From positions 29,671-93,670 of the IMG/VR virus record IMGVR_UViG_3300045988_131075: a stretch of DNA of 64,000 bases; one strand, given 5' to 3'. Source of the DNA: a virus. Shown here one piece after another: positions 2,559 to 46,809 of this stretch. The first letter of the stretch is position 1, and each line of letters starts with the position of its first letter. The notes under the pieces are model-generated. The model saw only the letters and a program-made list of their open reading frames with translations. It was not told the DNA's origin and searched no databases. The position numbers were made by a program, and so were the translations under genes.

Positions 2559-3665
2559 ATGAATTCGTTATAGAGAAGTATTAAGGCCAGTCCAAGAGAA
2601 ATGAATACAGAAGATTTTTTAAAGAAATCTTATGAATTTACAAAAAGAAGTATGAGTTAGAAATTAAGAGCAAGAGATACTTCTGAAAAACAAGCTAAAA
2701 AATTAGAAGAATTCTTTCAAAGTATTCAAAATAGATAGCTTGGAAATCCTATCGAAAATATCCAAATGAGTGAATTATTAGATGCTTTAGAATAGATTAA
2801 TCCTTAGCTCTTTAATTCAATGAAATATTTATTTACTACGCCAGATAACTATGGAGATTCTAATGATGCGCATGGTAAATATTTTGAAGGGGTTATTGCG
2901 GAAGCGGTTGCCACTGCGGAGAATTATTTTGCTGGTAATAAAACTATGACTATAAGTGGAAGTAGTAAAAAGGCTGGAACCGCATCTGTTAACCTTATAG
3001 ATTTAGCAAAGGATTTAGATGAAGATACAAAAAATCTAATGAATGATATTTATTAGAAAACTGCCCAAGAAATGAAAAAAGATAGTGAAGCTGCATCTTC
3101 TACAATAAAAGGAGTTTCTGGCAAAGCGGATATTATAGGAATTTAGTAGAATTATACAATATAGAAAACTAGCCATTTAGAATTAGATGAAGAAATTTAT
3201 GATGCTTTATTAAATGCTACTTTTACTGCGAAAAATTATATGTCTAACACTTAGATTGAATTAGGATCTACTAATCCTTTTCGTGTTTTTATGACTATGA
3301 TTCCTCTTGGAGGAGCTACAAGTAAAATTTAGAGATATTACCGTATGTTGGCTTGTAAATAGAAGCACTTTCCTGATAAGCATCCTGATGCACCAAAGTA
3401 TTTTTATAGATTAAGAGCTATTTATGAATTAACTGGTGGAAAATCTAATTATACTAATACTGTATTAAATAAGCTAATAGGTGGAAATTATACTAAATTT
3501 TTAGTTTTAAATTTATAGGGACATATAAGAGTTATTCCTACTTAGAGTGTCATAAAAGAGCTTATTGACAATATTGATGATGATTAGTTTAATAAAGATA
3601 TAGATTGGCAAAAGGCTTTATATGGACGTATTAGGATTAATCAAAATAAATTTAGTGAAATTTAA
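2559..3665 (+). CDS. Hypothetical tail-module protein, 368 aa, with about 17 in-frame TAG codons.
   Basis: A single frame runs from ATG 2559 to TAA 3663-3665. All internal stops are TAG. Confidence 0.5.
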
Positions 3666-3723
3666 AATTGACTAAATAGAAAATTTTTTGTATAATGTAA
3701 TAAAGAGTAAAAGGAGGCTAATT

Positions 3724-4257
3724 ATGGCTAAAATTTCATATACTAAATTAGGAATTGGTAAGGAAGAATTGAATAAAGTTCAGACTGTAGAATATAATGA
3801 TCAAACCATTGAAGTAAAGCAATATCTTCCAGTTGCAGAAAAGAGTGAATTAATTACTCGTGTATTAAATAATTCTGTAGATGAAGATAATGGATATTAT
3901 AATCTTTTAAAGATGGATATGCATCTTGCACTTGAGATTGTTTATGCTTATAGCAATATTAATTTTACAGAAAAGCAAAAAGAGGATTCAGCGAAGCTTT
4001 ATGATATGCTCAATGCTTCAAAGGTGCTTAATCTTATTATTGGTCTTATTCCAGAAGGAGAATTTTATTATTTAAATAAGACTGTCCATGAAATGGCTAA
4101 TAATATTGTGGCTTATCGCAATTCCGCGATGGGAATTATGGAGCGCATTACTACTGATTATAGTAACTTAAATTTTGATGCTAGCACGATTCAAAAAGAA
4201 CTTGCCGATCCTAATAATATGACTTTATTGAAAGATATTCTCACTAAATTGGGCTAA
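3724..4257 (+). CDS. Putative tail assembly chaperone-like protein, 177 aa.
   Basis: RBS AAAGGAGG sits 6 nt upstream of the ATG. It lies immediately upstream of the tape measure gene. The protein is acidic and helical. Confidence 0.3.
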   Translation: MAKISYTKLGIGKEELNKVQTVEYNDQTIEVKQYLPVAEKSELITRVLNNSVDEDNGYYNLLKMDMHLALEIVYAYSNINFTEKQKEDSAKLYDMLNASKVLNLIIGLIPEGEFYYLNKTVHEMANNIVAYRNSAMGIMERITTDYSNLNFDASTIQKELADPNNMTLLKDILTKLG

Positions 4258-4302
4258 TTAAATTATTTAATTTAATTAATTTTTTAAAGTCATTAGAGTA
4301 AT

Positions 4303-4387: not shown

Positions 4388-7300
4388 ATGGCTAAACAAT
4401 TAAATAGTTATCAAGTTAATTTACAATTTAATGCAAATACTGCATAGGCGAAAACGCAATTGCAAGATTTGCAAACAACTCTTGATGCTATTATAAAAGA
4501 GTCTGTAGCGGGGGTTTCTAAAGGAGACTTTAATTTAACTAAAAGATTAAATGAAGCGCAGATAGCGGCATCAAAACTACAAACCATTTTAGCTCAAACT
4601 ACTAATGTAAAAACGGGAAAAATGGATTTAACAAGATTTTCTCAATCTTTAAAATAGAGTAATTTAGATTTAAAAAAGATATAGAATAGTTTACTTGAAC
4701 TTGGACCTTCTGGGCAAAAAGCTTTTATGTCTTTAGCTCAATCTATTGTTGAAGCTGATGTTCCATTAAAAAGAACAAATTTATTAGTTTCTGAATTATG
4801 GACAACTTTAAAGAATACAGCTCGTTGGTAGATTTCTTCTAGTGCATTGCATGCATTTATGGGTACTATTCAATCTGCTTATGGATATGCCAAAGATTTA
4901 AATGAATCTTTAAATGATATTCGTATTGTTACTGGACACAATATTGAATATATGGATAAATTTGCTGAAAGAGCAAATAAAGCGGCGAAAGCATTAAACG
5001 CTACTACATTAGATTACACTAATGCTTCTTTAATTTACTATCAATAGGGTTTAAGTGATGAAGAAGTAGAAAAAAGAACAGATATTACTGTTAAAATGGC
5101 TAATGTAATTAAACAAAATGCTGATATTGTTTCTGATCAATTGACTGCAATTTGGAATAATTTCTATGATGGCTCCGATTCTCTAGAACATTATGCTGAT
5201 GCGATGGTGCGCTTAGGTGCAGATACCGCATCTAGCTCTGATGAAATTGCTGGCGGTCTTGAAAAATTTGCGGCAGTTGCTAATACAATTGGTTTAAGCT
5301 TTGATAATGCAGCAGCTGCGTTGGCCACTATTACTGCTACGACTCGTCAAAGTGAAGATGTAGTAGGTACTTCTTTAAAGACTATTTTTGCTCGTATTCA
5401 AGGTTTAAAATTAGGTGAAACCTTAGAAGATGGCACTACTTTAAATCAATATTCACAAGCTCTTGCGGCTGTTGGAGTTAATATTAAAGACTCTAATGGA
5501 CAATTAAAAGATATGGATATCATTCTTGATGAATTGGGCCACAAATGGTCAACAATTAGTAAAGACCAATAGGTAGCTTTAGCTCAACAAGTAGCTGGTA
5601 TTCGCCAATATAACCAATTAATTGCTTTAATGGATAATTTTGATTTTTATCAAGAAAATATTCAAAGAGCAAAAGATGCAGATGGTTCTTTACAAGAACA
5701 AGCTGATATTTATGCTGAAAGCTGGGAAGCTGCTCGTGATCGTGTGCGTGCAGCAGCCGAAAGCATTTATGATGATTTGATTAATGATAAATTCTTTATT
5801 AGTTTGTCTGATGCGATAGCAGGAGCTTTAGATGCTATCGATAAATTGATTAGTTCTATAGGAGGTCTTCCGGGAGTAATTGCAGCTCTTGGAATGATAT
5901 TTACTAAAGTGTTTAAAGTTCAAATGGGCGAGGGCGTTAATAATTTAGTTTTTGGCCTTTAGTCTTTAGTTGGACTTACAAAAAAGAGTGCAGTTTCTCT
6001 TAAACAAGAAGCTTATAATCGAGCTTCTAATATGGCTTTTGATACTGGTACTGAAGTTGGAGATAGATAGGGAGAATCATTAAAATAGACTTTAGACTTA
6101 AAGAAAAGAATATATGATATATCTGAAAATATTACAAAAGAGGAAAGACAATAGCTTGAAGGGTTAATTGAAATTAATCGAGCTTATAATGAACAGGCTA
6201 TAAAAGCGGCTCAAAAAAAAGATTAGGCTAGTGAGAATCTTCAAAATACTCGCATGGATCTTAGAGCGCGCATAAGAAGAAATTCTGCCACTGGAAAAGT
6301 AGAGAAAAATTTAAATACTTTTGGAAATGTTCAATAGCAAATGGGTGGAATTATTAAAACTGGTTTGCGAGGAACTAAAGCTTTAGATGGACTTAATAAA
6401 GCATTAAAAGAAGGAAGTCCATTAGGAAAAGCTTTTGAGGGCAGAATAAATACAATTCAGCAGGCTTTAATTAAAGTAGATAGATCTGAAGCAGCTAAAT
6501 CTATTGGAAATTTTGTTGAAGAATTAAAAAACGGAACTATAACAGTAGATTAGTTCTTGAAAAAAGTAAATAATGTTGTCACTAAAGAAAATTTAATGGC
6601 TGATGCTACATCCAAAGCGGCAACTATTCTTGAGGATGACTTTGGCAAAAAAGTTAAAATTAACGGCGAGGAATGTCAAAAGCTTGCTGAAGATATGACT
6701 GAAGTTATTGTAACAACAGATAAATTAAAAACTACTAATAAGCAAGTTGCTGGGTCTTATGAAAAAATAAAAGCTGCAATTGAAAATTATAAAAATGCTA
6801 CTGGAGATTTAGGGTAGAAATTAATTTCTATGGTTAATGGTTTTTCTTCATTGGCTATGGGATTGGCTTCCATTAAGAGTATTTTTGATACTTTATCTGA
6901 TGAAGATATGTCATTCTTTGATAAACTTTTATCAGTTAGTATGTCTTTAGGCATGGGTATTTCTATGACCGTTTCTGGCTTATCTACTATGGCTAAAGCC
7001 TATAAAGAATTGGCAGAAGCTAAAACTTTAGATAATATAAAGACTTCGATTAATACTGCTATTACAGAGATTAATAATCTGGTAAAAGCTTAGGCGGCCG
7101 CCAGAACAGGAACTCAAACAGTAGCTACAGATAGATAGGCATTGGCTGAAAGCAAACTTACAAAAAATATAATATTGTAGAATGCTGCCTATTTAGTCCG
7201 TAATACACAGATGTCTGCAACAGCAGCTTTTGGATTAAGTTTAGCTGGTACTATATTAGCTGTAGTTGCAGCTGCAGCGGCTTTAGTGCTTATATCTAAA

Positions 7301-10300
7301 GCAGTTTATAATTCTATTCATAAAGAAGAAATAGCGGCTGAAGCAGCAGCCAAAGCGGCTTCAGATCTTGGTAATGCTTATGATGAGTGTCGTGAAAAGT
7401 ATCAGCAAATGATTGATGAGTTTAATGAATACAAAGATGCCATAGATGCTTTGGATAATTTAACTAAAGGAACTCAAGAATATCGTGATGCTTTAGACGA
7501 GGCTAATCAAAAGGCTTTAGAATTAATTCAAAATAATCCTGATAAATTTAATAAAGATGATTATTATTGGGATGATAATAAATTAGTTATTAAAGATACA
7601 GCTATGTCTCGTGTAGCTGAAGCTAGTAGACAAGAGACAGCGGATTTATAGGCTGCTTCTGCTATGGCCAATGCCAATAATGCTCAGGCATAGGCAAATT
7701 TGCAGAAAGAAAATCTTACTGATATTGTTAAGAGTTCTTTGCGTAACACAGGTAATGTAAATAAATCTATTGATGCTTATTTAAATAGCGATAGAGTTGC
7801 TGTTGATAAAGAAGACTTAAAAGATATTCTTAATCTTGATAATGGTATAGACGATAAGGCTTTAGTTAATGTCCTTTGGCGCAATATTGATGCTTTAAAT
7901 GAGTTAAGAAATACTATGGATGGGGTTGAAACCTCTTTTGATCTTGCTAGTAAAACCGCAGCAAGAGCGCAATGGTCTGGTTCTGGTAAAGAAAATACTA
8001 AAGCTGGAAAAATGGCGCTTGAAGGTGGCGGAAGATTATATAATAATCTTTATGCTGAGGGAGAAAATACTGTTAAAGGTTATTCATTAGACACTAATTG
8101 GGCTGCCTATGAAAAAATGAATAATTTGAATTCTCTAAAAGGATATAAACGTTCTATTAAAAGCGATAAAGTTGAATACAGTTATTATGATGAGAATGGT
8201 GAAAAGATAACTTAGGAAATCAGTAAAGAAGCTATTCAAATCGCGGCCGCAACCCAATATGCTAATGATAGAATTGGAGAAGCTTTAGATAGCTTATATC
8301 AAAATATTGCTAAAGCTAATAAAGATGGCCTTGATAGTGTAGGGAAATATTTATCAACAGAAAATTTTGATAATATGACAAAAGGCGAGCTTGAACAATT
8401 TTAGGGATTAACTGATGATTAGTTAAAAGAATACGGAATTGATAAACAAGCTATTGAAGAAGCTAAGAAAGTTGTATTTGATGAAATGGATGGTCTTAAT
8501 GAAGCTATGAGCGATTAGATCACTGTTGGAGTGAATAAGACTTTAAAAGAAAATATTTAGAATTTTGGTTCTGAAGGTAAAGATGCCTATATTAGTGCTA
8601 TCAATCAAATTGGTGAATCTATTGATTGGAATGCTTTGTCTCCAGAATCTTAGGCTGAAGCTTGGAATAAAATTTCTAATATTAATTGGTTTGATTTTGA
8701 TGCTCAACGTCAAGCTGAAACTCTAATTAAAGAAATGGGCGGAGATGTTTCTGTTCTTGGAGATAATTGGGATAAAGCTTTTAGCTAGATGCGCAAAGCT
8801 GGAGATGTCGTTCCAGTATTAACTGATATCAAAGAACGCCTTGATAAAATAGATAATATTACTAAAGATATGAAAATCGGTAAGATTTTAGAAAAAGAAG
8901 ATTATGATACTTTAGTAAATTATAATAGTGAATTGGCAAGATATTTTGCTATTTTATCTGATGGGTCTGCTGTTTTTGTAGGTGATCCTCTTGATTTCCA
9001 GTAGATGGTTAAATCCACTAAGTAGGATGAATTAAGTAGAACTATAAATGGATACCAAAATATTATTGATTAGTATTATGCGGGGGCTGAAGAACTTAAA
9101 AAAGCGGGTGGATTAGATTAGATTCGAGAAGTTGGGTCTGAAAATGTTAATAATCAGTTAGCGTTTTTAAAGACTTAGAACTATGATGAAACATAGATTT
9201 CTGATTGGATTGGTAAGCTTGCTAATTCTAGAGGATAGGATATTGACACTTTAAAAGCTATTGCTGAAGCAGTTAATGAAGTTGGTAATTCTTTCTTATC
9301 TAGCAAAGATAGTATAGAACAATATACAGCAAGTAGTCAATAGGCTATGAATGAATTGGCAATGACCGCCGAAACTGCTCAAGAAGCAGAAGAAATGCTT
9401 AAAAATGGTAGTATCAATGAAATAGCTTATAATATAAGTGCTATATAGCGTATGTCTAGTGAAAAATGGGAAAATTTAGATTCATCTGAAGTAAATAAAT
9501 ATGCAGATTCTTTAATGAAGACAGCTAAAAGTTCTAAATTATTAAGTGATGAACTTGTAAATAATAAAGAGGCTGCTGAAGATGTAGCTCTTTACACTAT
9601 GAAAATGAATAATGGTGTAGAGAAATTGAAAAATGGCTTTAGCGGATGGGCTGATGTATTAACGAAATCTGATTCTGCTTCACAAGAATATTATGATGCA
9701 ATGGTTGATATTAAAGATGCCATGTCTGATGTGCTTGGGGTTTCAGAAGAATTTTTAACTGATGAGTTTATTACTAAAAATTTAACTGATATAGGCAAGG
9801 CTGCAGAAGGCGATGCTGATGCTATAGATCGTTTGGCCGCTGCGGCAAGTAAAGATATTCTTTTAAATGTTGATTTTGTTTAGGATAATAAACAATTACA
9901 AGATGTTTTATTATCAATGCATGATAAATTAGCGGCGGAAATTCCAGATATAAAAATTGGTACAACTTTTGAAGGTCAAGATGATTTAGTTAGATAGGCT
10001 CAAAACATTATCGGCACAGCAAAAATGACTGCTGAATAGGCAAATGCTTATTTTAGTGCCATGGGTTTTGAAACTAAATTTAAAGTTGAACCTCAAAAGA
10101 TGGAATAGGAAACCCCGATAGTACGTTCTAGATAGACAATAGTTGGAGCAGGATTTGATGAACACGGAGCTCCCTATTGGGAAACAACAACAGAAACTTG
10201 GAATGATGGATATAGCATTCAAACAGGTTATGTCGATGCTATTGCTATGGCGACCTCTCCTGATGGAACAAAAACTCCGATTATTGAAAGTATGACTAGT

Positions 10301-13300
10301 AAGCCTACTGGAATTATGAATAATAGTTCAAAAGCTAATAGAGGTACTACAAGCTCAAGTAAAGGCGGAGGAGGAAATAAAAATAAACCAACCAAGGGAG
10401 ATTTAACTAAAAAAAGCGATGTTGTTGATCGTTATAAAGAAATTACTGATAGCATCAATGATACCACTCGTGCTTTAGATAAGGCTAATAAATCGGCAGA
10501 TAGACTTTGGGGTAAAGCCCATCTTGATGCGATGGCTAAAAGTAATAAATTAACTTTAAAAGAAATTGATTTATTAAAACAAAAGCAAAAAGAGGCTTAG
10601 GCTTATCTAAAGACAGATAAAGTTACTTTATAGCAAGCTGCGAAAGAAGCTGGAATTACTTTCACATTTGATGAAGATGGTGACATTTCTAATTATACTG
10701 ATTAGATGACTAAACTTTATAATTAGCTCATAGCTGCTTAGAATAAAGCAAATTCTTTTTCTACAAAAGATGCTCAAGACGCTTATAAAGAAGCAACTTT
10801 AGATCCGATTCAAGAGAAAATCAATAAGTTGAAAGATGCTATTAAGCAATATGAAGATACAAGAGATTTAGTCGAAGAATTAACTGATGATATCCAAGAT
10901 AAAATAAACGAATGGCAAGATAAAAATTATCAAATGCTTACTTATGAAGTTGAAATAAAGGTTCAATTAGATGAAAATGATACTAAAAAATTAGAATATT
11001 ATTTTGATAAATTAAGTGATAATATTTATAAAGCCGCTGAAGCTCTTGGATATTTACAAGGCCAATTTGATCCAGTAATTAGTCAATTAGGAACTTACGA
11101 AAATTTCTATGGCCAGTTAAATAATGCTTATTCTAATGGAGAAATCTCTCAAGAAAATTATATTGAAGGCTTACAAGATGTATATGATAATACATTAGAT
11201 AATTTAAATGCTTTGTAGGATTTAGATAAAGAAATGCTTGAATATTATGGTAATACTATAGATTTGGCAAATGATGAATTGTCTAAATATACAGACCATA
11301 TGGAACATTTAACCAATGTATTAGACCATTATCGTTCTATTATTACTTTATTAGGCAAAGATAAAGATTATGATAAAGTTTTATCAGTTTTAAATGGAAC
11401 TGCTTAGACTAAGAAAAATAATTTTGATACTTCTAAGCAATGGTATGAAAGCTTGAAACGTGAACGCGATGCGGCGGCCGCAGCTTTAGCCAGTTCAACT
11501 GATGAGGCTGAACGTGAAGTGCTTCAAAAGAATTATGATGCTATATTAGCCGCATTCGATGAAGCGGAAGAGGATATGCTTTCTAAAGCTGAAGAATATG
11601 GCGAAGCATTAAAAGAAATTCTTACTACAAAGATGGAGCAAGCTGCGGATGAAATGAATAAGCAATTAAGCACTACTAAAGTAAGTATTAATGGTAATAA
11701 CTTTAATATTTCTGGTTGGGATGCTTTAAATGATGCTTTGGATAGAATGTCTTCTTATCAAGATGAATATTTAACAAAAACTAATTAGATTTATGAAATG
11801 AATAAACTACTTAATAATGTTAATTAGGCTATTGATAAGACAAATAATCAAGCAGCTAAAAATAGATACCAGCAATTTACTAAAGAAATTGAGTAGTTAA
11901 GAGATAAAGATAAATTAAGTCAATTAGAATTAGAAATTGCTTAGGCTAAATATAAAGTACTTGAAGCGCAAATTGCGTTAGAAGAAGCTCAAAACGCAAA
12001 GTCTACAGTTAGACTGCAACGTGATAATGAGGGCAATTTTGGTTATGTGTATACCGCAGACCAAGAGAAAGTAAATGATGCGCAATAGGCTTTGGCGGAC
12101 GCGGAAAATGATTTATATAACATTCGCCTTGATGCGACAAATAAATATGGTCAACAAAAACTTCAATATGAGAAAGAGTTGGCTGACAAACTTGCGGAAC
12201 TCGATTAGAAAGCTGCGGAAGATGCCGTTTACCGCGAGACCGCTTATCAGCAAGAACGCGCTTTAGTAATTCAACAATATACTGATTTAATTACTACTGC
12301 TGGAAATCTTTATGCAAAAGCTCAAGAAGAGGATAGTAGAGTTGTTCAAGACGCTTGGGTAAATTCTTTTGATATTATCAAAGATAATAGTAATAGTTGG
12401 AAAGATACTATTACTGAAAACACTAATATTATCAATGATACATTTAAAGAATGGCAAGATAGCATGGATGAAATTAGTAAAATTGTTGGTGATGATTTAA
12501 AAGATACTCAATAGAAAGTTAAAGATGTTACTGATGAAAGTAATAAACTTTATCAAGAAGTATCTAATAGAGTTATTCCTACTCTTGAAAGCGAGTTAAG
12601 TTCTGTCCGTAGCGCTACTGAAGCTTGGGCACAACATCGTCAGCAATTACTTGATACTATTAGAGCTTATGAAGAGCTTTTGAACGCTATTCAAGCGACA
12701 TTGCGCGCTTAGAGTGGATTTGGTAGCGATAGTAGTAATTCTTCAACAAGAGTTGATTGGTCTGAAAAAATGGGTCAAGTTGAATATGGTTCTGATAAAT
12801 ATAATGAATATTATCAAAATCGTGAAGATGTTATTAAAGGAGGATATGACATTAAAACAGCTACAAATGCTCGTGTTAATGCTTTTTATCAAAAAGGATT
12901 GACATTACCAATTACCCGCAATGGAAAAACTTATACTCATTTTACTGATATTCCTGATAGCATTTGGAAACAATTAGTTGGGTTTAGAAGTGGCGGTTAT
13001 ACTGGCACTTGGAATGATGGTGGAAAATTAGCGTTCTTACATTAGAAAGAATTAGTTCTTAATGCTGATGACACGGAAAATATGTTAGCTTCTATCCAAT
13101 TAGTTAGATAGATCGCGAAACAATTAGATTTCAATAGTCAACAAATTTCTACTCTTTCTTCTTCTGGATTTACTGTTAGTTCTCAAGATGGAACATTAGA
13201 ATAGAATGTTAGAATTGAAGCTAATTTCCCGAACGCAACTGATAGATACGAAATTCAAGAAGCATTTAATACATTAGTTAATGTAGCTTCTCAGTATGCC

Positions 13301-13312
13301 AATAGAAAATAA
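4388..13312 (+). CDS. Tape measure protein, about 2974 aa. This is a single ORF once TAG is read as sense, with many tens of in-frame TAG codons.
   Basis: RBS GAAAGGAG precedes the ATG at 4388. All 15 long track ORFs from 4460 to 12770 share one frame, and the gaps between them contain only TAG. The stop is TAA at 13310-13312. The protein is Ala/Gln-rich and helical, with no enzymatic motif recognised. Confidence 0.7.
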
Positions 13313-27213: not shown

Positions 27214-30200
27214 ATGTCTAAGATACGTTTTCGTCCTGTATAGGGTCCAGAAGAAAAGATAAAAGCATATCCACAAACTGATGGATATTTTTATGTGGCA
27301 ACAGATACCGGACGAGTTTATTTAGATACAGCGACTGAGAATAAAATACCAATAGGTTCAAGTGGCGTTTAGGTAATTTATGGAACTGAAAAAGACGTCG
27401 GAATTGATTATGATGCGGATGAAAACCCAATCGGATATTCAATTCGTTTATCTAATTTATCAAGTTCTAATCCTCATGTAAATGATTTAATTTTAAATAG
27501 CGATGGAGCATTTTATCGTATTAAAGAATTTAAATTAAATGATGATAAAGAAGAAGTCGCAAGTTGTGAAAAATTATTGGCAGGCAGTGGAAGTCAAGAC
27601 CAAGAAGTCAAAGTAAATGGTACTGTTTCTTTAACTTTAGATGGACCTACTGATGTGCTTAATGGTGAATCAGTAAGCGTGACCGCGCTTGTAAAATGTA
27701 GAACAATAAACGGAGAACCAGTTCTTGATTCTGTTGAAGGTACTTTAACTATTAGATAGAAAAAGAGTGATGGTTCTTGGGAAGATATTTATAGTGAAGC
27801 AAAAACTTATTAGCATAATAAACCAATTACTACTGATATTTCTGCTTATTTAAGAAATTCTTCTACACATGAAATTGAGTTTATCGTTAGTAAAAATAGT
27901 GATCCTACTAATAACCATTTTTCTACTACTAAAAAGACTCAATTTGTAACAACTCATGAATTAACTCTTCAATGGCAAGAAAGTAAATTTAATAATGATT
28001 TACCTTTTGATAATGGTCAAATTAATGTTACTTGGTTAATGTCCGATAAAGTAAATAGTGCTATTGAAGTTTATTTTGATAATTATTTAGTTTTAGATAA
28101 AGAATATAGCAGTACTAATACTAGAAATGAAGATAGTATTACTATAACAAAAAATACTGTTATTTTAAATAATAATAATGATTCTACAATGACTTTAACA
28201 AATTATTTCCTTCACGGAGAACATACTATTAAGGCTAAACTTTATTTAGTTAATAGTGGTGAAAAAGGAAATGGTACTGATTTTATTGAGAAAGAAATTG
28301 TTGTTTTAGATAGAAGCAGTAAGACTCCTTTAATTTGGACAGGTGACTTTAAAACAGAATATTATATTTATGAAACTATTAGAATTCCTTTTAGGGTATA
28401 TGATCCTAATGTAACGATCGCGAAAGTTAGTTTATATAAAAATGGTGTTTTATTAAGTACTCGTGAAGTTACTAACTAGAATGAATGGCAATATTGGGAA
28501 ATTACTAATCTTTCTGTTAATGACAGCTCTTATTATACAATTAAAGTAGGAACTGAGCCATATGATTATTCTCGTAATTTTACTTTTATAATTAAAATAG
28601 ACCCATTAAGGAATATGGAATTAGCTAGAAGTAATGATTTAAAAGTTAATTTCGTTGCTACTGGACGTTCTAATTCTGAGAGTAAATTAAGTCGTGAAAC
28701 ATTAGAAATTAATGGTAAATATGCAGAATTTAAAAACTTTAACTGGTATAATAATGGTTGGGTTTTTGATGATAACAATACTACTTGTTTAAGAGTTAGT
28801 AATGGTGCTGAAGTTTCTATTCCTATTGGACAATTGTCTTTTGATAATAGTTCTTCTACTCCTACACATAGTATTGAGATTCAATTTAAAATTAGAAATC
28901 CACAAAATTATTCTAAAGTAATTACCAAATATACTCGTTATAAAGCAAGCGATGAATCTGGAAAGTCTTGGACTGATAGAGATGCTTGGGATGCATTTAA
29001 AGATTAGACTATCTATGTTAATTATGATGAATTTTTAACAAAGAAATATTTACCAGAGCATCCAGAAGCTCCAAGTTATGATGAATTAACCTATAATGGT
29101 TTAGATCAAGATTTTAATTTAAATAATCTTGTTTGCGCTTATGGGTCTTTAAAAAATCCTTTAGGTATCTATTTTAGTCCTCAAGATGCTGTATTTACAG
29201 CTAATGGTGATGAAGAGACTGTTTCGGTTGATTTTGTAGAAGATGAAATGTTATATTTAACATTTGTTTACACAAGTTCTAAACCTAGTCATACTGGCGG
29301 AGATTCTAAATTATTAGAAATTTTCTTAAATGGTGTTTTAACTAGTGTAGCTCGTCGTTCTGATAAATCTAGTAATTCTGCTTGGACAATTGATTCTGAT
29401 GTTATTAAATTTATGTCTAATACTTGTGATATTGATATTTATAGTATTAGAGTTTATGATACTAGTTTAACTATTCCTGATGTGGTTTAGAACTATGCCT
29501 TTGATAAAAAAGATATTAATCAATGGGATTAGAAAGATCTATATGATTATAATACTATTTTAAATGATTATGTATTTTCTTACCGTAAAATGCTTGACTA
29601 TAATACTGAACACACTGATAAACCATTGATGCCTTATATTATTTTAAAAACTACTAAAAATAATAGTGAAAGTACTGATAATAGACTTCCCTACTCCAAG
29701 GACAATGGCGCTCAAAAAGGAACTATGGAATTTGTAAATGTTCCATTAGATACTGCTTATGCTAAGGGCGAACTTGATAAAATAGTTGAAAAAGAAGGTT
29801 GGAAACCTGTAATAGATGATAAAACTAATGAAGTAAAATATACTGCGGTATAGAATTATTATTTACATCATTGCCCTAGTTTTATAACTCTTTTTGATAA
29901 AGCGACATTTTAGGTTTAGGGAACTTCTTCGCGTAATTATCCAAGACGTAATTATAAAGCTAAATGTAAAGAAACGATGTTTATGAATAGAGGACCTTTT
30001 GAATCTATTTATAAAGAAGAAGAGGTTAATAATAACTTAAATACGAAAAGTAAGAGTTATCTTGAATTTTTCTATATGGATAATAATACTGTTGGTACTA
30101 CTAAATTTACTTTAAAGATTGATTTTATGGAATCTTCTGGAGATTATAATAGAGGATTTGCTAATTTAGTTAATGAGACTTATTCTAAACATCCAGTAGA

Positions 30201-43272: not shown

Positions 43273-43725
43273 CTAATTGCGGGAACCGCGCAAAGGCAGA
43301 GTGATATCTCTTTCCTTTTGGATATATGGTCCATCAATTAGGTAATCAGCGGTTTTTAATATATTCTTAATTCTAATATTATTACTATTCTTTAAATTAT
43401 CATAAATATATCCAGTCCATATATATATTTTAATGTTTGGATATATTTTTTTAATTTCAGTAATAATTAAATTAGTTAAAAATTCATTTTCAGGGCAGAG
43501 GGGTTCCCCACCCATAATACAAAGATTACGCTCAACATTATTTGCATTAATAGCAGCAATTAATTCATCTAATACTTTATTAGTAAATTCTTTGCCACCA
43601 TTAAAATCCCACGTTTCAGGATTCTGGCATCCTTCACAATGGTGCGGACACCCTTGTGTAAAAAATGATACACATACTCCGGGTGCCGCTGCCAAATCAT
43701 TTTTTATAATTCCTGCATATTTCAT
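43273..43725 (-). CDS. nrdG: Anaerobic ribonucleotide reductase activating protein (radical SAM).
   Basis: It carries the GCPHHCEGCQNP Cys cluster. It overlaps the nrdD stop by 4 nt. Confidence 0.7.
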   Translation of the reverse strand: MKYAGIIKNDLAAAPGVCVSFFTQGCPHHCEGCQNPETWDFNGGKEFTNKVLDELIAAINANNVERNLCIMGGEPLCPENEFLTNLIITEIKKIYPNIKIYIWTGYIYDNLKNSNNIRIKNILKTADYLIDGPYIQKERDITLPLRGSRN

Positions 43726-46700
43726 TCTAATACTCCCGTATGTTTTACTCTTGCTTCAACTTCTTTTTGTTTACCCCAGTTAAAAGCAGTTTTATAATTA
43801 CCTGTAAGATAACCGGTCACACGACGTAATTGCTGAATATTATGGCTTCCACACACTGGGCAAGAATCATTAAATTCATCACAATAACCGCATTCAAGGC
43901 AAGTGTCATTAGGAACATTTACTGCGAAATAAGGAATATCGTGATCCATAGCATAATTAACAATAGTTTCAAGAGCATCAATATTATGTTTTACAGTAGA
44001 ATCAAGTTCAACATAAGTAATACATCCTGCGGATGAATAACCAGTCAGCTCAGACTCAATATCAATTTTTTCAAATGGACTCATTTCTTTCCACACCGGA
44101 ACATGAATACTGTTAGTGAAAAATTCTCTATCACTAACATTAGGGATAATTCCATACCTTTCTTTGAATTTCGTCATAGCTGTATAACAAAGATTTTCTG
44201 CTGGAGTATAGTATACACCAAAATTTAACTTATATTTTTCTTTGTATTCAGCACATCTTTCTTTAAAGCGCTTTTCAATCTTCTTAGCAATTTTCATACC
44301 ATATTCAGTGGTATGGTCTTCACCAACAAGAATTTGAAGGGTTTCCGCAAGACCAATTTGACCAATAGCAAGAGTTCCATGTTTAAGAGCGGAACGAATT
44401 CCTTCTTCTGGAACATAACCAGCCATGACATTATTTTCATACATAAATCTCGCAGACCCAGGGTCTTGAGAACAAATCCATTCAAAACGCTCCATTAATT
44501 GAATACGTGCTTCATTAATCTTTCTATCAAGCAAAGCTAAGAAAACAGGAATAACATCTTCTTCTTGTCCTTCTTTCTAACATTCTTCTTTTGCTATCAT
44601 AGCAAGAGTGGGAAGAATAATAGTAACAGGACAAATATTTCCACGTCCGTCTTTAAGCTGACCAAATCCGTTAATATCCCAGCCATTTGCAGTTCTACAC
44701 ATGATTACCCAATGTCACCATTGGCACTGACTATATTATCATTCTATCTATAAAATAGAGTTGTCTTCCGCTTCGGCTTGGTGCCTATCTCCAAGCCTAC
44801 TCCCTTACATTCATCAGGGATAGTCGATACACTTTATTCATCATAATATTCAAATTTCCAAGTATTTTTAAATGGACTTTTAATTTTTCCATTTAATCTA
44901 TTTGTAACAGAAGTTTTACCATTCTAAATTCCACAAGCTTTAGCACAACTAATAATAGTATCAAAAATATCTATTTCATTAGTAAAAATATTTATTCTTT
45001 TTATTTTTTTAGCCATAGGATTTTTACTTCCTACTTTAGTTTGTCGAATTTTATTTTTAATAACTTCTATTTCTTCATCAGTTTTAGATTGATAAGTATT
45101 TCCACCGCATTTAGAAATAGCGTCCGTTTCATTATAACCATCTATTACTGAATTATAATATTTAATCCAATATTGCTCTTTTTCGTTTAACTCTTGTTGC
45201 GTGTTTGCTGTATCAATTTCTTCTATAATAAAATTTTCTTTACCATATTTTCTTATTGCTCTGGCAAAATGAGTATCAAGAATATTATTAAGAGCATCAT
45301 TTATATGTCTTTGAAATCTTTGATTAATTGGTCTAATAGACTAACCAATGTATACTTTATTATTTTGAATATTTGTTATTTTATATATCCACATTAAGGA
45401 TACCTCCTTTATATGAATATTATGATGAATCTTAGCACGGTCTCATCTTAATATTACAGCCAATTATATTAAGACCTAACCGTTAGCCTCTTTATAGAGA
45501 CACCCGCTGGCGCGGTTCAAAAGATTTTAAATGGGCTGAGTTTTCGCTTACCCATTGTAGAGAAATAAGTGCGAGGATCATTGATATCATATCCTGCATT
45601 GCCAGACCAATCAACATTCGCATAATTAGGATAGAGGCGTCTCGCGGTGCTTTCTAATGCTAATCTATATAAATCATAATTAGGATCACTAGGCTTGCGG
45701 TTAACACCTTTCATACATTGGAAAATTCCACAAGGAAAAATCGAAGTTTTATGTAATTTACCAAGACCTTCAATAGAAACATCTAATAACGCCTTAGTTA
45801 CCATTCTGCCTTCTGGTAAGGTGCAAGTACCATAATTAATACTTGTAAATGGTAGCTGATTACCACTACGAGATTGTAGGGTGTTAAGATTATGATAAAG
45901 ACCTTCAGCTGCTTGATGAGTTTCACGGACAGTCATTTTCATAGCATATTTGTATGCTTTTGGAAATGATTTATAAAAATCATTATCAATAGGAGTTTCT
46001 TTATTATAACAGCCGTCATATTTACTCATATCTAATCCTTCATATAAAAACTCAATACCATCATTGAAATGTTTAAAGAAAGATTTTCTTACATAAGGAA
46101 CCATAGTCCAATCCAAATGAGTAGCACTAACTCCACCAAACTAACAAAGACTTTGAATTTGGAAAATAACAGCAATTAATTGGAATGCTGTATTAATTGA
46201 GCCTGCTGGACGAACATCCGCTTGACGAGTATTAAATCCATTAGCAAGTAAATCATCAAAAGGAATACTTAAACAGTTATGAGAACCAACATAATAAGAA
46301 TCAAGATCGTGAGTATAAATAATATTATCAATATGATTCTTACGAGCCATTGGTGAAAGTAAATAATCAAGTGCGAGTTGTTTGGTAACGACACTACTTG
46401 CTTCACCAGTGCGACCGCCAAATGAATGCTCGTCAACATTAGCATTTTGGTTTTTTACATTATTGCCATCAAGCTTCTCACGAATTGCTTTAATAAAATC
46501 ATCTTTTTTATTACGAGCAACTTCTTTTTTATATCTATATCTGATATAAGCACGAGCAACATCGCGTCGCTCAGAACGCATTAAATAATCTTCAATCCAA
46601 TCTTGAAGATCTTCTACTCCAACACTTCCATCAGGGAAATGATTTATTTGTCTTTCAATGTCTTCCGCAATATCTTTTGCGGTATCATCTTCATATAATT

Positions 46701-46809
46701 TACCATCAACTTCAATAAATGCTTTATTTATTGCGTTAATAATTTTCTTTTTATTAAATTGAGTTATACTTCCATCACGTTTAATAATATACAATTTTTT
46801 TGCCTCCAA
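43722..46809 (-). CDS. nrdD: Anaerobic (class III) ribonucleotide reductase NrdD, split by a group I intron. Exon 1 is 45550..46809 and exon 2 is 43722..44699. There is one TAG at 46141-46143. Together the exons give about 745 aa.
   Basis: TTG start after GGAGG. It has an ATP-cone domain, the segments GSHNCLSIPFD and DPNYDLYRLA, and the glycyl-radical C-terminus RVTGYL. The exon junction YFSTMG|CRTANG is supported by homology. Confidence 0.7.
44700..45549 (-). mobile_element. Group I self-splicing intron in nrdD.
   Basis: The P1 helix pairs exon 5'-AAUGGGU with the internal guide GCCCAUU, with U.G at the splice site. The intron ends in G. It encodes a homing endonuclease. Confidence 0.6.
44834..45394 (-). 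CDS. Intron-encoded GIY-YIG homing endonuclease, about 186 aa, with 2 TAG codons.
   Basis: RBS GGAGG precedes the ATG. The motif reads IYKITNIQNNKVYIG[TAG]S, then RKYG and EQYWIKYYNS. The TAG falls on the conserved Gln of YIGQS. Confidence 0.65.

Follow-up and report, generated by a model that had tools for sequence, protein, structure and literature searches.

Structure of the nrdD locus

The stretch analyzed here (the window) is 64,000 nucleotides of viral DNA, positions 29,671 to 93,670 of IMG/VR record IMGVR_UViG_3300045988_131075, and it carries an nrdD gene, encoding the anaerobic ribonucleotide reductase, whose reading frame is broken by an insert that itself holds an endonuclease gene. 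Group I introns with endonucleases are a classic feature of phage ribonucleotide reductase genes. All coordinates are window positions, the whole locus lies on the minus strand (-), and relatives given L-numbers are IMG/VR loci. The main features are listed below.

45550..46809 (-), nrdD exon 1: 420 codons, ATP-cone and N-terminal NRDD parts, ending ...STMG
44700..45549 (-), group I intron: 850 nt, IA2-like (P7.1 and P7.2), beginning after the exon U and with G as its final base
44834..45394 (-), GIY-YIG homing endonuclease open reading frame (ORF): 186 codons plus TAA, 561 nt, in the P6a loop of the intron
43722..44699 (-), nrdD exon 2: 325 codons, beginning at the catalytic Cys (CRTANG...), with the glycyl-radical domain inside

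The NrdD frame (translation of 46809..43722) breaks off after ...RTYFSTMG at 45550 and resumes as CRTANGWDING... at 44699. Exon 1 ends with ...TAT TTC TCT ACA ATG GGT at 45550, exon 2 begins with TGT AGA ACT GCA AAT GGC from 44699, and the predicted ligated junction (45550|44699) joins ...ACAATGGGT to TGTAGAACT.... The 850-nt insert (45549..44700) splits the catalytic-Cys motif, STMG|CRT, directly before the conserved catalytic Cys codon. When it is removed, the two exons encode a 745-residue NrdD that matches Pfam NRDD (2e-143) together with the ATP-cone and glycyl-radical domains, and that aligns end to end with the Prevotella copri enzyme (PDB 8P23; E 3.5e-129). This alignment is ungapped at the junction (..fstmgcrtangwd.. 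against ..IATMGCRTRVFED..), and the protein has no need of the insert as coding sequence. Each exon contains a single in-frame TAG, at codon 223 (46143-46141) in exon 1 and at codon 461 (44579-44577) in exon 2.

The last three intron bases (44700-44702, -) happen to form an ATG in frame with exon 2, from which ORF finders derive a spurious "MCRTANG..." start; annotation pipelines therefore call two nrdD genes at this locus.

Fold and group I identity of the insert

An initial annotation of the window had proposed a group I intron in nrdD with a P1 pairing of AAUGGGU with GCCCAUU and the exon junction YFSTMG|CRTANG. Both the pairing and the junction are present, and the intron was confirmed at 44700-45549 on the minus strand by P1, the terminal G, covariation, and a family covariance model. 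Its structural elements are as follows.

45530..45556 (-), P1: exon AAUGGGU (45556-45550) with internal guide GCCCAUU (45536-45530), read off the sequence
45524-45518 (-), P3 5' strand, in the 5' half of the core (45437..45524)
45515-45504 and 45499-45488 (-), two extra J3/4 hairpins, between P3 and P4
45483-45479 and 45441-45437 (-), P4 5' and 3' strands, in the 5' half of the core
45474-45446 (-), P5, in the 5' half of the core
45436-45434 and 44833-44831 (-), P6 5' and 3' strands
45430-45415 (-), P6a 5' strand, paired to 44851-44836 and closing the ORF-holding loop
44825-44820 and 44734-44729 (-), P7 5' and 3' strands, in the 3' catalytic core (44700..44833)
44819-44802 and 44797-44775 (-), P7.1 and P7.2, in the 3' catalytic core
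44770-44764 and 44759-44747 (-), P3 3' strand and P8, in the 3' catalytic core
44724-44709 and 44700 (-), P9 and the terminal G, in the 3' catalytic core

P1 comprises 7 bp, the one at the 5' splice site being U·G, and the guide occupies intron nt 14-20. A pattern scan of IMG/VR for P1 plus its guide returned more than 119 loci, dozens of which are nrdD genes interrupted at the identical MG|CR site by inserts of 190-1050 nt, with or without an ORF; the ORF-less versions measure 190-326 nt. Because these relatives were picked with the P1/guide pattern, the identity of P1 among them follows from the pattern itself. At the other end the intron reads ...AUCAUG|UGU, and a terminal G was found in every same-site relative whose exon 2 aligned from the Cys codon, the relatives' 3' boundaries having been set by tblastn of exon 2.

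Covariation was scored on 20 distinct same-site introns, from which the ORF loop was removed in silico (20 nt kept per side) before alignment with MAFFT, using a hand-derived structure of P1, P3, P4, P5, P6, P6a, P7, P7.1, P7.2, P8, P9, and the two extra hairpins. Paired cells amounted to 91.5%, against 72.4 ± 0.8% in the shuffled control (0 of 500 shuffles reached the observed value) and 34-44% when partners were slid by 1-3 columns. Changes on both sides were seen in 58 of the 83 pairs, including 6 of 7 in P3, 3 of 5 in P4, and 8 of 9 in P5, and relatives showed double changes at all 16 pairs of P6a. P7 is invariant among the 20 introns and the same as in T4, and is uninformative on covariation. 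P7.1 and P7.2 are both present, covary, and align with their T4 counterparts; such hairpins between P7 and the P3 3' strand are a hallmark of subgroup IA. Two alternative pairings were rejected: P4 as AACCG/CGGUU, unsupported by L002 and L078, whereas ACNGU/ACNGU covaries; and the P3 of the Rfam alignment of L015 (using the 3' strand of hairpin B), which is impossible in the window, L002, and L024, while UCUUUUG/CGGAAGA covaries.

A covariance model of the 3' core only (R1) was built from 10 other loci, with the window left out. Its sole match in the 64-kb window was 44701-44833(-), at 124.9 bits (E 5.5e-26), and the T4 nrdD intron scored 77.6 bits with the same model. The J3/4 hairpins (45488-45515, -) recur in L002, L007, L015, L024, and others. 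L013 (190 nt) and L122, minimal relatives in which P3 and P4 are joined canonically as P3-AAA-P4, have neither hairpin. We know of no named group I subclass with two J3/4 hairpins. On the sequence evidence, the insert is a true group I intron, it falls in the phage IA2 type, and it is predicted to splice.

The same exon/guide pairing (ATGGGT ... GCCCATTTAAAA) was also seen at ORF ends in several unrelated IMG/VR gene families, namely ..ARPMPDLIHTTMG| (L014, L019, L031, L034, and others), ..NSNTDIEKMG| (L010, L035, and others), and ..FTSRIPTMG| (L004, L008, L021). The pairings at these other ..MG| sites presumably mark related introns.

A GIY-YIG endonuclease folded into the ribozyme

The ORF within the P6a loop is preceded by a Shine-Dalgarno sequence, AAGGAGG, at 45409-45403. 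Its product belongs to the GIY-YIG class, as initially annotated: it matches Pfam PF01541 (1.8e-9; 38.2 bits, where the cut-off is 22.6) and, in PHROGs, a family of homing endonucleases (2e-24), and its N-terminal 90 residues align to the catalytic domain of I-TevI (PDB 1MK0/1LN0; E 5e-9) with the active-site residues of 1MK0 all kept (the tyrosines of GIY and of YIG, Arg, His, Glu, and Asn). The two in-frame TAGs claimed for this ORF are likewise there, at codon 18 (YIG-TAG-S, 45343-45341) and codon 157 (CGI-TAG-NG, 44926-44924), and the evidence given below favors reading them as sense.

Ribozyme and gene overlap physically. The last five endonuclease codons (EYYDE), together with the first stop-codon base, serve as the 3' strand of P6a and pair with intron nt 120-135 in a duplex of 16-17 bp (-21 kcal/mol). 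In L024, covariation of this stem from CAUCAU/AUGAUG to CAUUAU/AUAAUG is accompanied by a change from Asp to Asn in the protein. In the window and four of its relatives, a predicted hairpin encloses the Shine-Dalgarno sequence and the AUG.

The whole endonuclease ORF is under purifying selection. Across its full length dN/dS was 0.08-0.19 in all pairs, and it was 0.12-0.19 for pairs in which both copies carry the TAG at codon 18 (TAG-18), with a synonymous excess at p 9e-5 to 3e-10. No frameshift and no other stop was found among the 8 copies compared. The low dN/dS together with the intact copies indicates that the endonuclease is translated through both TAGs.

TAG is read as glutamine in the phage and most likely in the endonuclease

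The window is clearly TAG-recoded, and the phage reads TAG as glutamine (Gln; code 15). Treating TAG as a sense codon yields fewer ORFs, which together cover 0.95 of the window instead of 0.63, and a greedy gene map then contains 212 in-frame TAGs in 42 ORFs; one ORF of 2974 codons (4388-13312) has 58 of them and another of 2567 codons has 32. Of the Gln-type codons, about 36% are TAG in the plus-strand block at 0-39 kb, whose very long ORFs presumably form the structural or late module, and about 10% in the minus-strand block at 39000-64000, which includes nrdD and is devoted to replication and nucleotide metabolism. A 1278-codon DnaE-type polymerase has no TAG at all.

The identity of the amino acid follows from aligned positions. 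Codon 223 of nrdD is TAG in the window and Gln in all relatives (SLQQFGG / SLCQFGG). Codon 18 of the endonuclease is TAG in the window, L099, and L123-L128 and CAA in L024, L089, L056, and L082. Codon 157 is TAG in the window, L099, and L126-128, CAA in L123-125, and AAA in L024, L089, L056, and L082; the TAG/CAA swap at this codon separates copies that are 94-96% identical. The endonuclease has more than 2000 homologues. Among database proteins 82-96% identical to it, position 18 is Q in 114 of 114; at position 157, 84 have Q, 27 have K, and 3 have R. The endonuclease TAGs at codons 66 and 102, found in a relative (L082), also align with CAA/CAG or Q in homologues. The endonuclease TAGs are therefore most likely read as Gln. 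The description of codon 18 as the invariant Gln of YIGQS holds for these close homologues and does not extend to I-TevI, which has a gap there.

Within the endonuclease, 2 of 10 Gln codons are TAG, compared with about 10% in neighboring minus-strand genes. The two do not differ (p = 0.27), and enrichment of the endonuclease in TAG over its neighbors was rejected.

In a side observation, a distant same-site intron of 1047 nt in L122, another TAG-recoded contig, encodes a GIY-YIG endonuclease with TAG at its YIG-Q-T position, a second and probably independent change of that Gln codon to TAG.

Relatives with other codes

The same intron occurs in phages with different codes. In L024 and L089, which are syntenic with the window, only 0-2 TAGs were counted in 13 and 7 kb, compared with 19-26 in recoded relatives, and their code is apparently standard; their endonuclease is 80-85% identical as protein and contains no TAG. 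L056 has TAG-recoded surroundings and no TAG in its endonuclease ORF, and the TAG-recoded L082 has an endonuclease with four, at codons 56, 66, 102, and 165. In L025 and L108, TGA is read as Trp (VD-TGA-S aligns with VDWS in NrdD), and the same P6a loop holds an HNH endonuclease instead of a GIY-YIG one (the L025 intron spans about 3489-4261). The HNH ORF contains two in-frame TGAs, one of them on the conserved W of NLEW.

TAG-free copies in apparently standard-code relatives, combined with TAGs at other codons elsewhere, indicate that the endonuclease TAGs arose in place, after the element had settled in recoded genomes, and that a sub-lineage has since passed them on. Taken as a whole, the endonuclease family is not restricted to recoded phages: given the TAG-free copies in L024 and L089, the initial annotation's suggestion of movement among recoded genomes only goes too far for the family. 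It does fit the sub-lineage sharing TAG-18, which has so far been found only in recoded phages. There is no sign that the endonuclease TAGs were selected; the enzyme nonetheless depends on suppression.

Intron-less alleles and mobility

The intron-less nrdD alleles in relatives that the initial annotation had recommended looking for do exist. Over 6.5 kb, L129-L131 match the window at 96-98% identity and share the same nrdD TAG codons, and in them exactly the 850 nt of 44700-45549 are absent. Such precise absence in nearly identical phages indicates that the intron is, or recently was, mobile. The intron-less target site reads ...CTACAATGGGA|TGTAGAACTGC..., and in L129 it reads ...TTCTCTACAATGGGA|TGTAGAACTGCAAATGG...; within 139 nt of the junction, the sole other difference of L129 is base -1, where it has A instead of the T required by P1.

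Across 80 intron-less alleles, the Gly codon at the site is GGA in 43, GGT in 20, GGC in 10, and GGG in 7. L129-L133 have GGA at this codon (position about 3201), and intron-bearing alleles have GGT (window 45550), in which the T is needed for the U·G pair of P1. The contrast between GGA and GGT suggests that the -1 base is co-converted or, alternatively, that some target variants are resistant.

The ORF also comes and goes. Within one phage group, the same intron is found without the GIY-YIG ORF in L005 (246 nt) and with it in L059, L071, L079, and L094 (819 nt), and L098 carries a frameshifted copy of the ORF (144 aa). In the ORF-less form (L005), a short P6a hairpin is built from the sequences that flank the ORF. 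Such presence and absence is what ongoing gain and loss of a homing element would be expected to produce.

Two further observations concern the phage group of L005 (6973-8595), L067, and L071. Their NrdD exon 1 (722 aa) has an additional, intein-like stretch of about 300 aa inserted in frame (..WCLDVEEAHSFVLPNGIVTGNC..), and an array of 14 tRNA genes lies directly upstream.

Proposed mechanism and its rivals

All in all, it is very probable that a mobile, phage-type (IA2) group I intron sits directly before the catalytic-Cys codon of nrdD in the window, and that the TAGs of its endonuclease are read as Gln and drifted to that state in place. In the transcript, the 16-bp P6a stem would loop out the endonuclease ORF, and the ribozyme core (P3-P9 with P7.1/P7.2) would excise the 850 nt and join ...STMG to CRT..., restoring a normal NrdD. 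At the DNA level, the GIY-YIG endonuclease would cut intron-less nrdD alleles of co-infecting relatives, and repair after the cut would copy the intron in (homing). The Gln codons of the endonuclease would have drifted to TAG as in neighboring genes, so that the enzyme could be produced only under TAG suppression. The mobility of the sub-lineage would thereby be tied to recoded phages and, probably, also to the phase of infection in which suppression is active. Within this picture, the sequence comparisons demonstrate the intron boundaries, the fold, the recoding, purifying selection over the complete ORF, and the polymorphism of presence and absence.

Several observations weigh against this reading. 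(i) P8 was only 51% paired in the MAFFT alignment, which is probably an alignment problem. (ii) The Rfam model RF00028 gave no match in the window at its gathering score (50 bits), nor at E<=10 on 44550-45700. Among the ORF-less relatives, L015 reached 40.8 bits (E 2.9e-9 in a 321-nt search), under the gathering score, and L013, L105, and L074 had no RF00028 match at E<=0.01. (iii) ARAGORN found no tRNA gene, and hence no suppressor tRNA, in the 64-kb window; related contigs are 157-191 kb long. (iv) We infer splicing, cleavage, and the timing of expression from sequence. The initial annotation had named failure of group I covariance models as evidence that would count against an intron, and the outcome is divided: RF00028 misses the window, while the R1 family model finds it. 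The second contrary result it had named, an NrdD alignment in which the insert is needed as protein, did not occur. The miss can be traced to the 561-nt ORF that occupies the P6a loop and to the two hairpins inserted in J3/4, and it is a problem of model and architecture, not a refutation. RF00028 scores 105 bits on the T4 nrdD intron and 55 bits on a same-site nrdD intron (L100).

The best-surviving alternative refines the proposed drift rather than replacing it. Here, TAG-18 would be a selected translational gate that blocks the endonuclease until a late switch-on of the suppressor while splicing proceeds early. A precedent exists in the TGA-recoded intron endonuclease of Agate phages, for which gating was proposed (Borges et al., bioRxiv 10.1101/2021.08.26.457843). 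TAG-18 has been kept throughout the clade of the window, L099, and L123-128, in which dS reaches about 0.3; the HNH intron ORF of the TGA-recoded cousins L025 and L108 has 2 in-frame TGAs; and the placement of the ribosome-binding site and AUG in a predicted hairpin in five relatives suggests restrained expression. However, the TAG share of the endonuclease does not exceed that of its neighbors, and recoded relatives have either no TAG (L056) or four at other codons (L082), which drift and inheritance fit better. A selected gate is thus possible but rather unlikely. We hold the same tentative opinion of the corresponding view of TAG-18 as a code-dependent gate and lock, in which splicing would occur whenever nrdD is transcribed and the endonuclease would be made only once TAG suppression is on. 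If it were true, a TAG-bearing copy landing in a standard-code phage would be immobilized, and the genetic code would act both as a homing timer and as a barrier that splits one intron family into code-specific pools.

It is very unlikely that the endonuclease TAGs are genuine stops and that the ORF is a pseudogene decaying in an intron that still splices and is no longer mobile. Under the standard code the ORF does stop after 17 codons, and a suppressor tRNA was not found in the window. However, dN/dS stays at 0.12-0.19 downstream of TAG-18 in TAG-bearing copies free of other stops and frameshifts, the swap between TAG and CAA at codon 157 occurs between copies 94-96% identical, and essential genes of the window themselves need TAG read-through (nrdD, and ORFs with 24-58 TAGs). 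Least credible of all is a split nrdD without splicing, its halves made separately on either side of a free-standing gene for the endonuclease, the arrangement of nrdA in Aeromonas phage Aeh1: the in-frame ATG before exon 2 and the continuation of the exon 1 frame for 11 codons into the insert, up to a TGA, would suit it, but that ATG has no ribosome-binding site before it and is not kept in relatives (ACG, TTG, or GCG), the flanks of the endonuclease ORF are a conserved, covarying ribozyme, and ORF-less inserts of 190-326 nt occupy the same site.

The locus is a clean and well-controlled case of a selfish element adopting the private code of the virus in which it resides. A single family of intron and endonuclease is open to comparison in four settings (standard-code, TAG-recoded, TGA-recoded, and near-identical intron-less phages), a set suited to asking whether recoded stops time endonuclease expression and whether they limit spread between codes. 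The interest lies mainly in how unusually complete this natural set of comparisons is, and in an intron family, expanded in J3/4, that escapes the standard model. Two practical warnings follow: standard-code gene callers split nrdD and truncate the endonuclease, and RF00028 misses this abundant J3/4-expanded family even in ORF-less members.

Comparison with known systems

Megablast of window positions 40-50 kb against GenBank phages gave no match. Judged by the DnaE-type polymerase, the nearest cultured relatives are SPbeta-like and Enterococcus phages, whose proteins are about 39% identical.

The locus had been described as a classic T4-like arrangement, which is only loosely right. The T4 nrdD (sunY) intron with I-TevII lies in the same host gene, is of the phage type with P7.1/P7.2, and likewise encodes a GIY-YIG-class endonuclease; its ribozyme is related, with 31 nt 100% identical to nt 724-754 of the window intron (P7/P7.1; BLASTN). 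However, the T4 intron interrupts a different site (..YEL|NTLFSSNGQ..), about 115 codons upstream of MG|CR, its ORF lies 3' of the core instead of in the P6a loop, it has no J3/4 hairpins, RF00028 recognizes it (105 bits), and it is read in the standard code. The window endonuclease showed no significant similarity to I-TevII in BLASTP (E 1.1).

Closer in position is the nrdD intron of Lactococcus phage 949 and the AM phages, which shares the site (PMG|CR), P1, and a homologous core including both J3/4 hairpins, with about 72% identity to nt 2-119 of the window intron (BLASTN, in the gap between two nrdD ORFs). It differs in being ORF-less (320-326 nt), with a short P6a hairpin instead, and in residing in standard-code Lactococcus phages. 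The noncoding nrdD intron of phage 949 was already listed by Dwivedi et al. 2013 (PMC3653736). Group I introns also interrupt nrdD in Jug phages, where splicing is supported at the RNA level (PMC12880540).

The endonuclease resembles I-TevI of the T4 td intron in its catalytic domain (E 5e-9 to 1MK0/1LN0) and differs from it in target gene, in a shorter and unrelated C-terminal DNA-binding part, and in the position of the recoded Gln, where I-TevI has a gap. The ORF of the T4 td intron is likewise looped out of P6a.

With respect to recoding, the nearest parallel is the group I intron endonuclease of Agate phages, which is preferentially TGA-recoded and for which splicing is expected early and endonuclease synthesis only late, delayed by the in-frame stops (Borges et al., bioRxiv 10.1101/2021.08.26.457843). 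The Agate endonuclease uses TGA as Trp and its family is statistically enriched for recoding, whereas the window endonuclease uses TAG as Gln and is unenriched. The TGA-recoded L025 and L108 are possible members of the Agate clade. Recoding of an intron endonuclease was already known, with TGA, from Agate phages, and the window holds its TAG-to-Gln counterpart in a different phage group.

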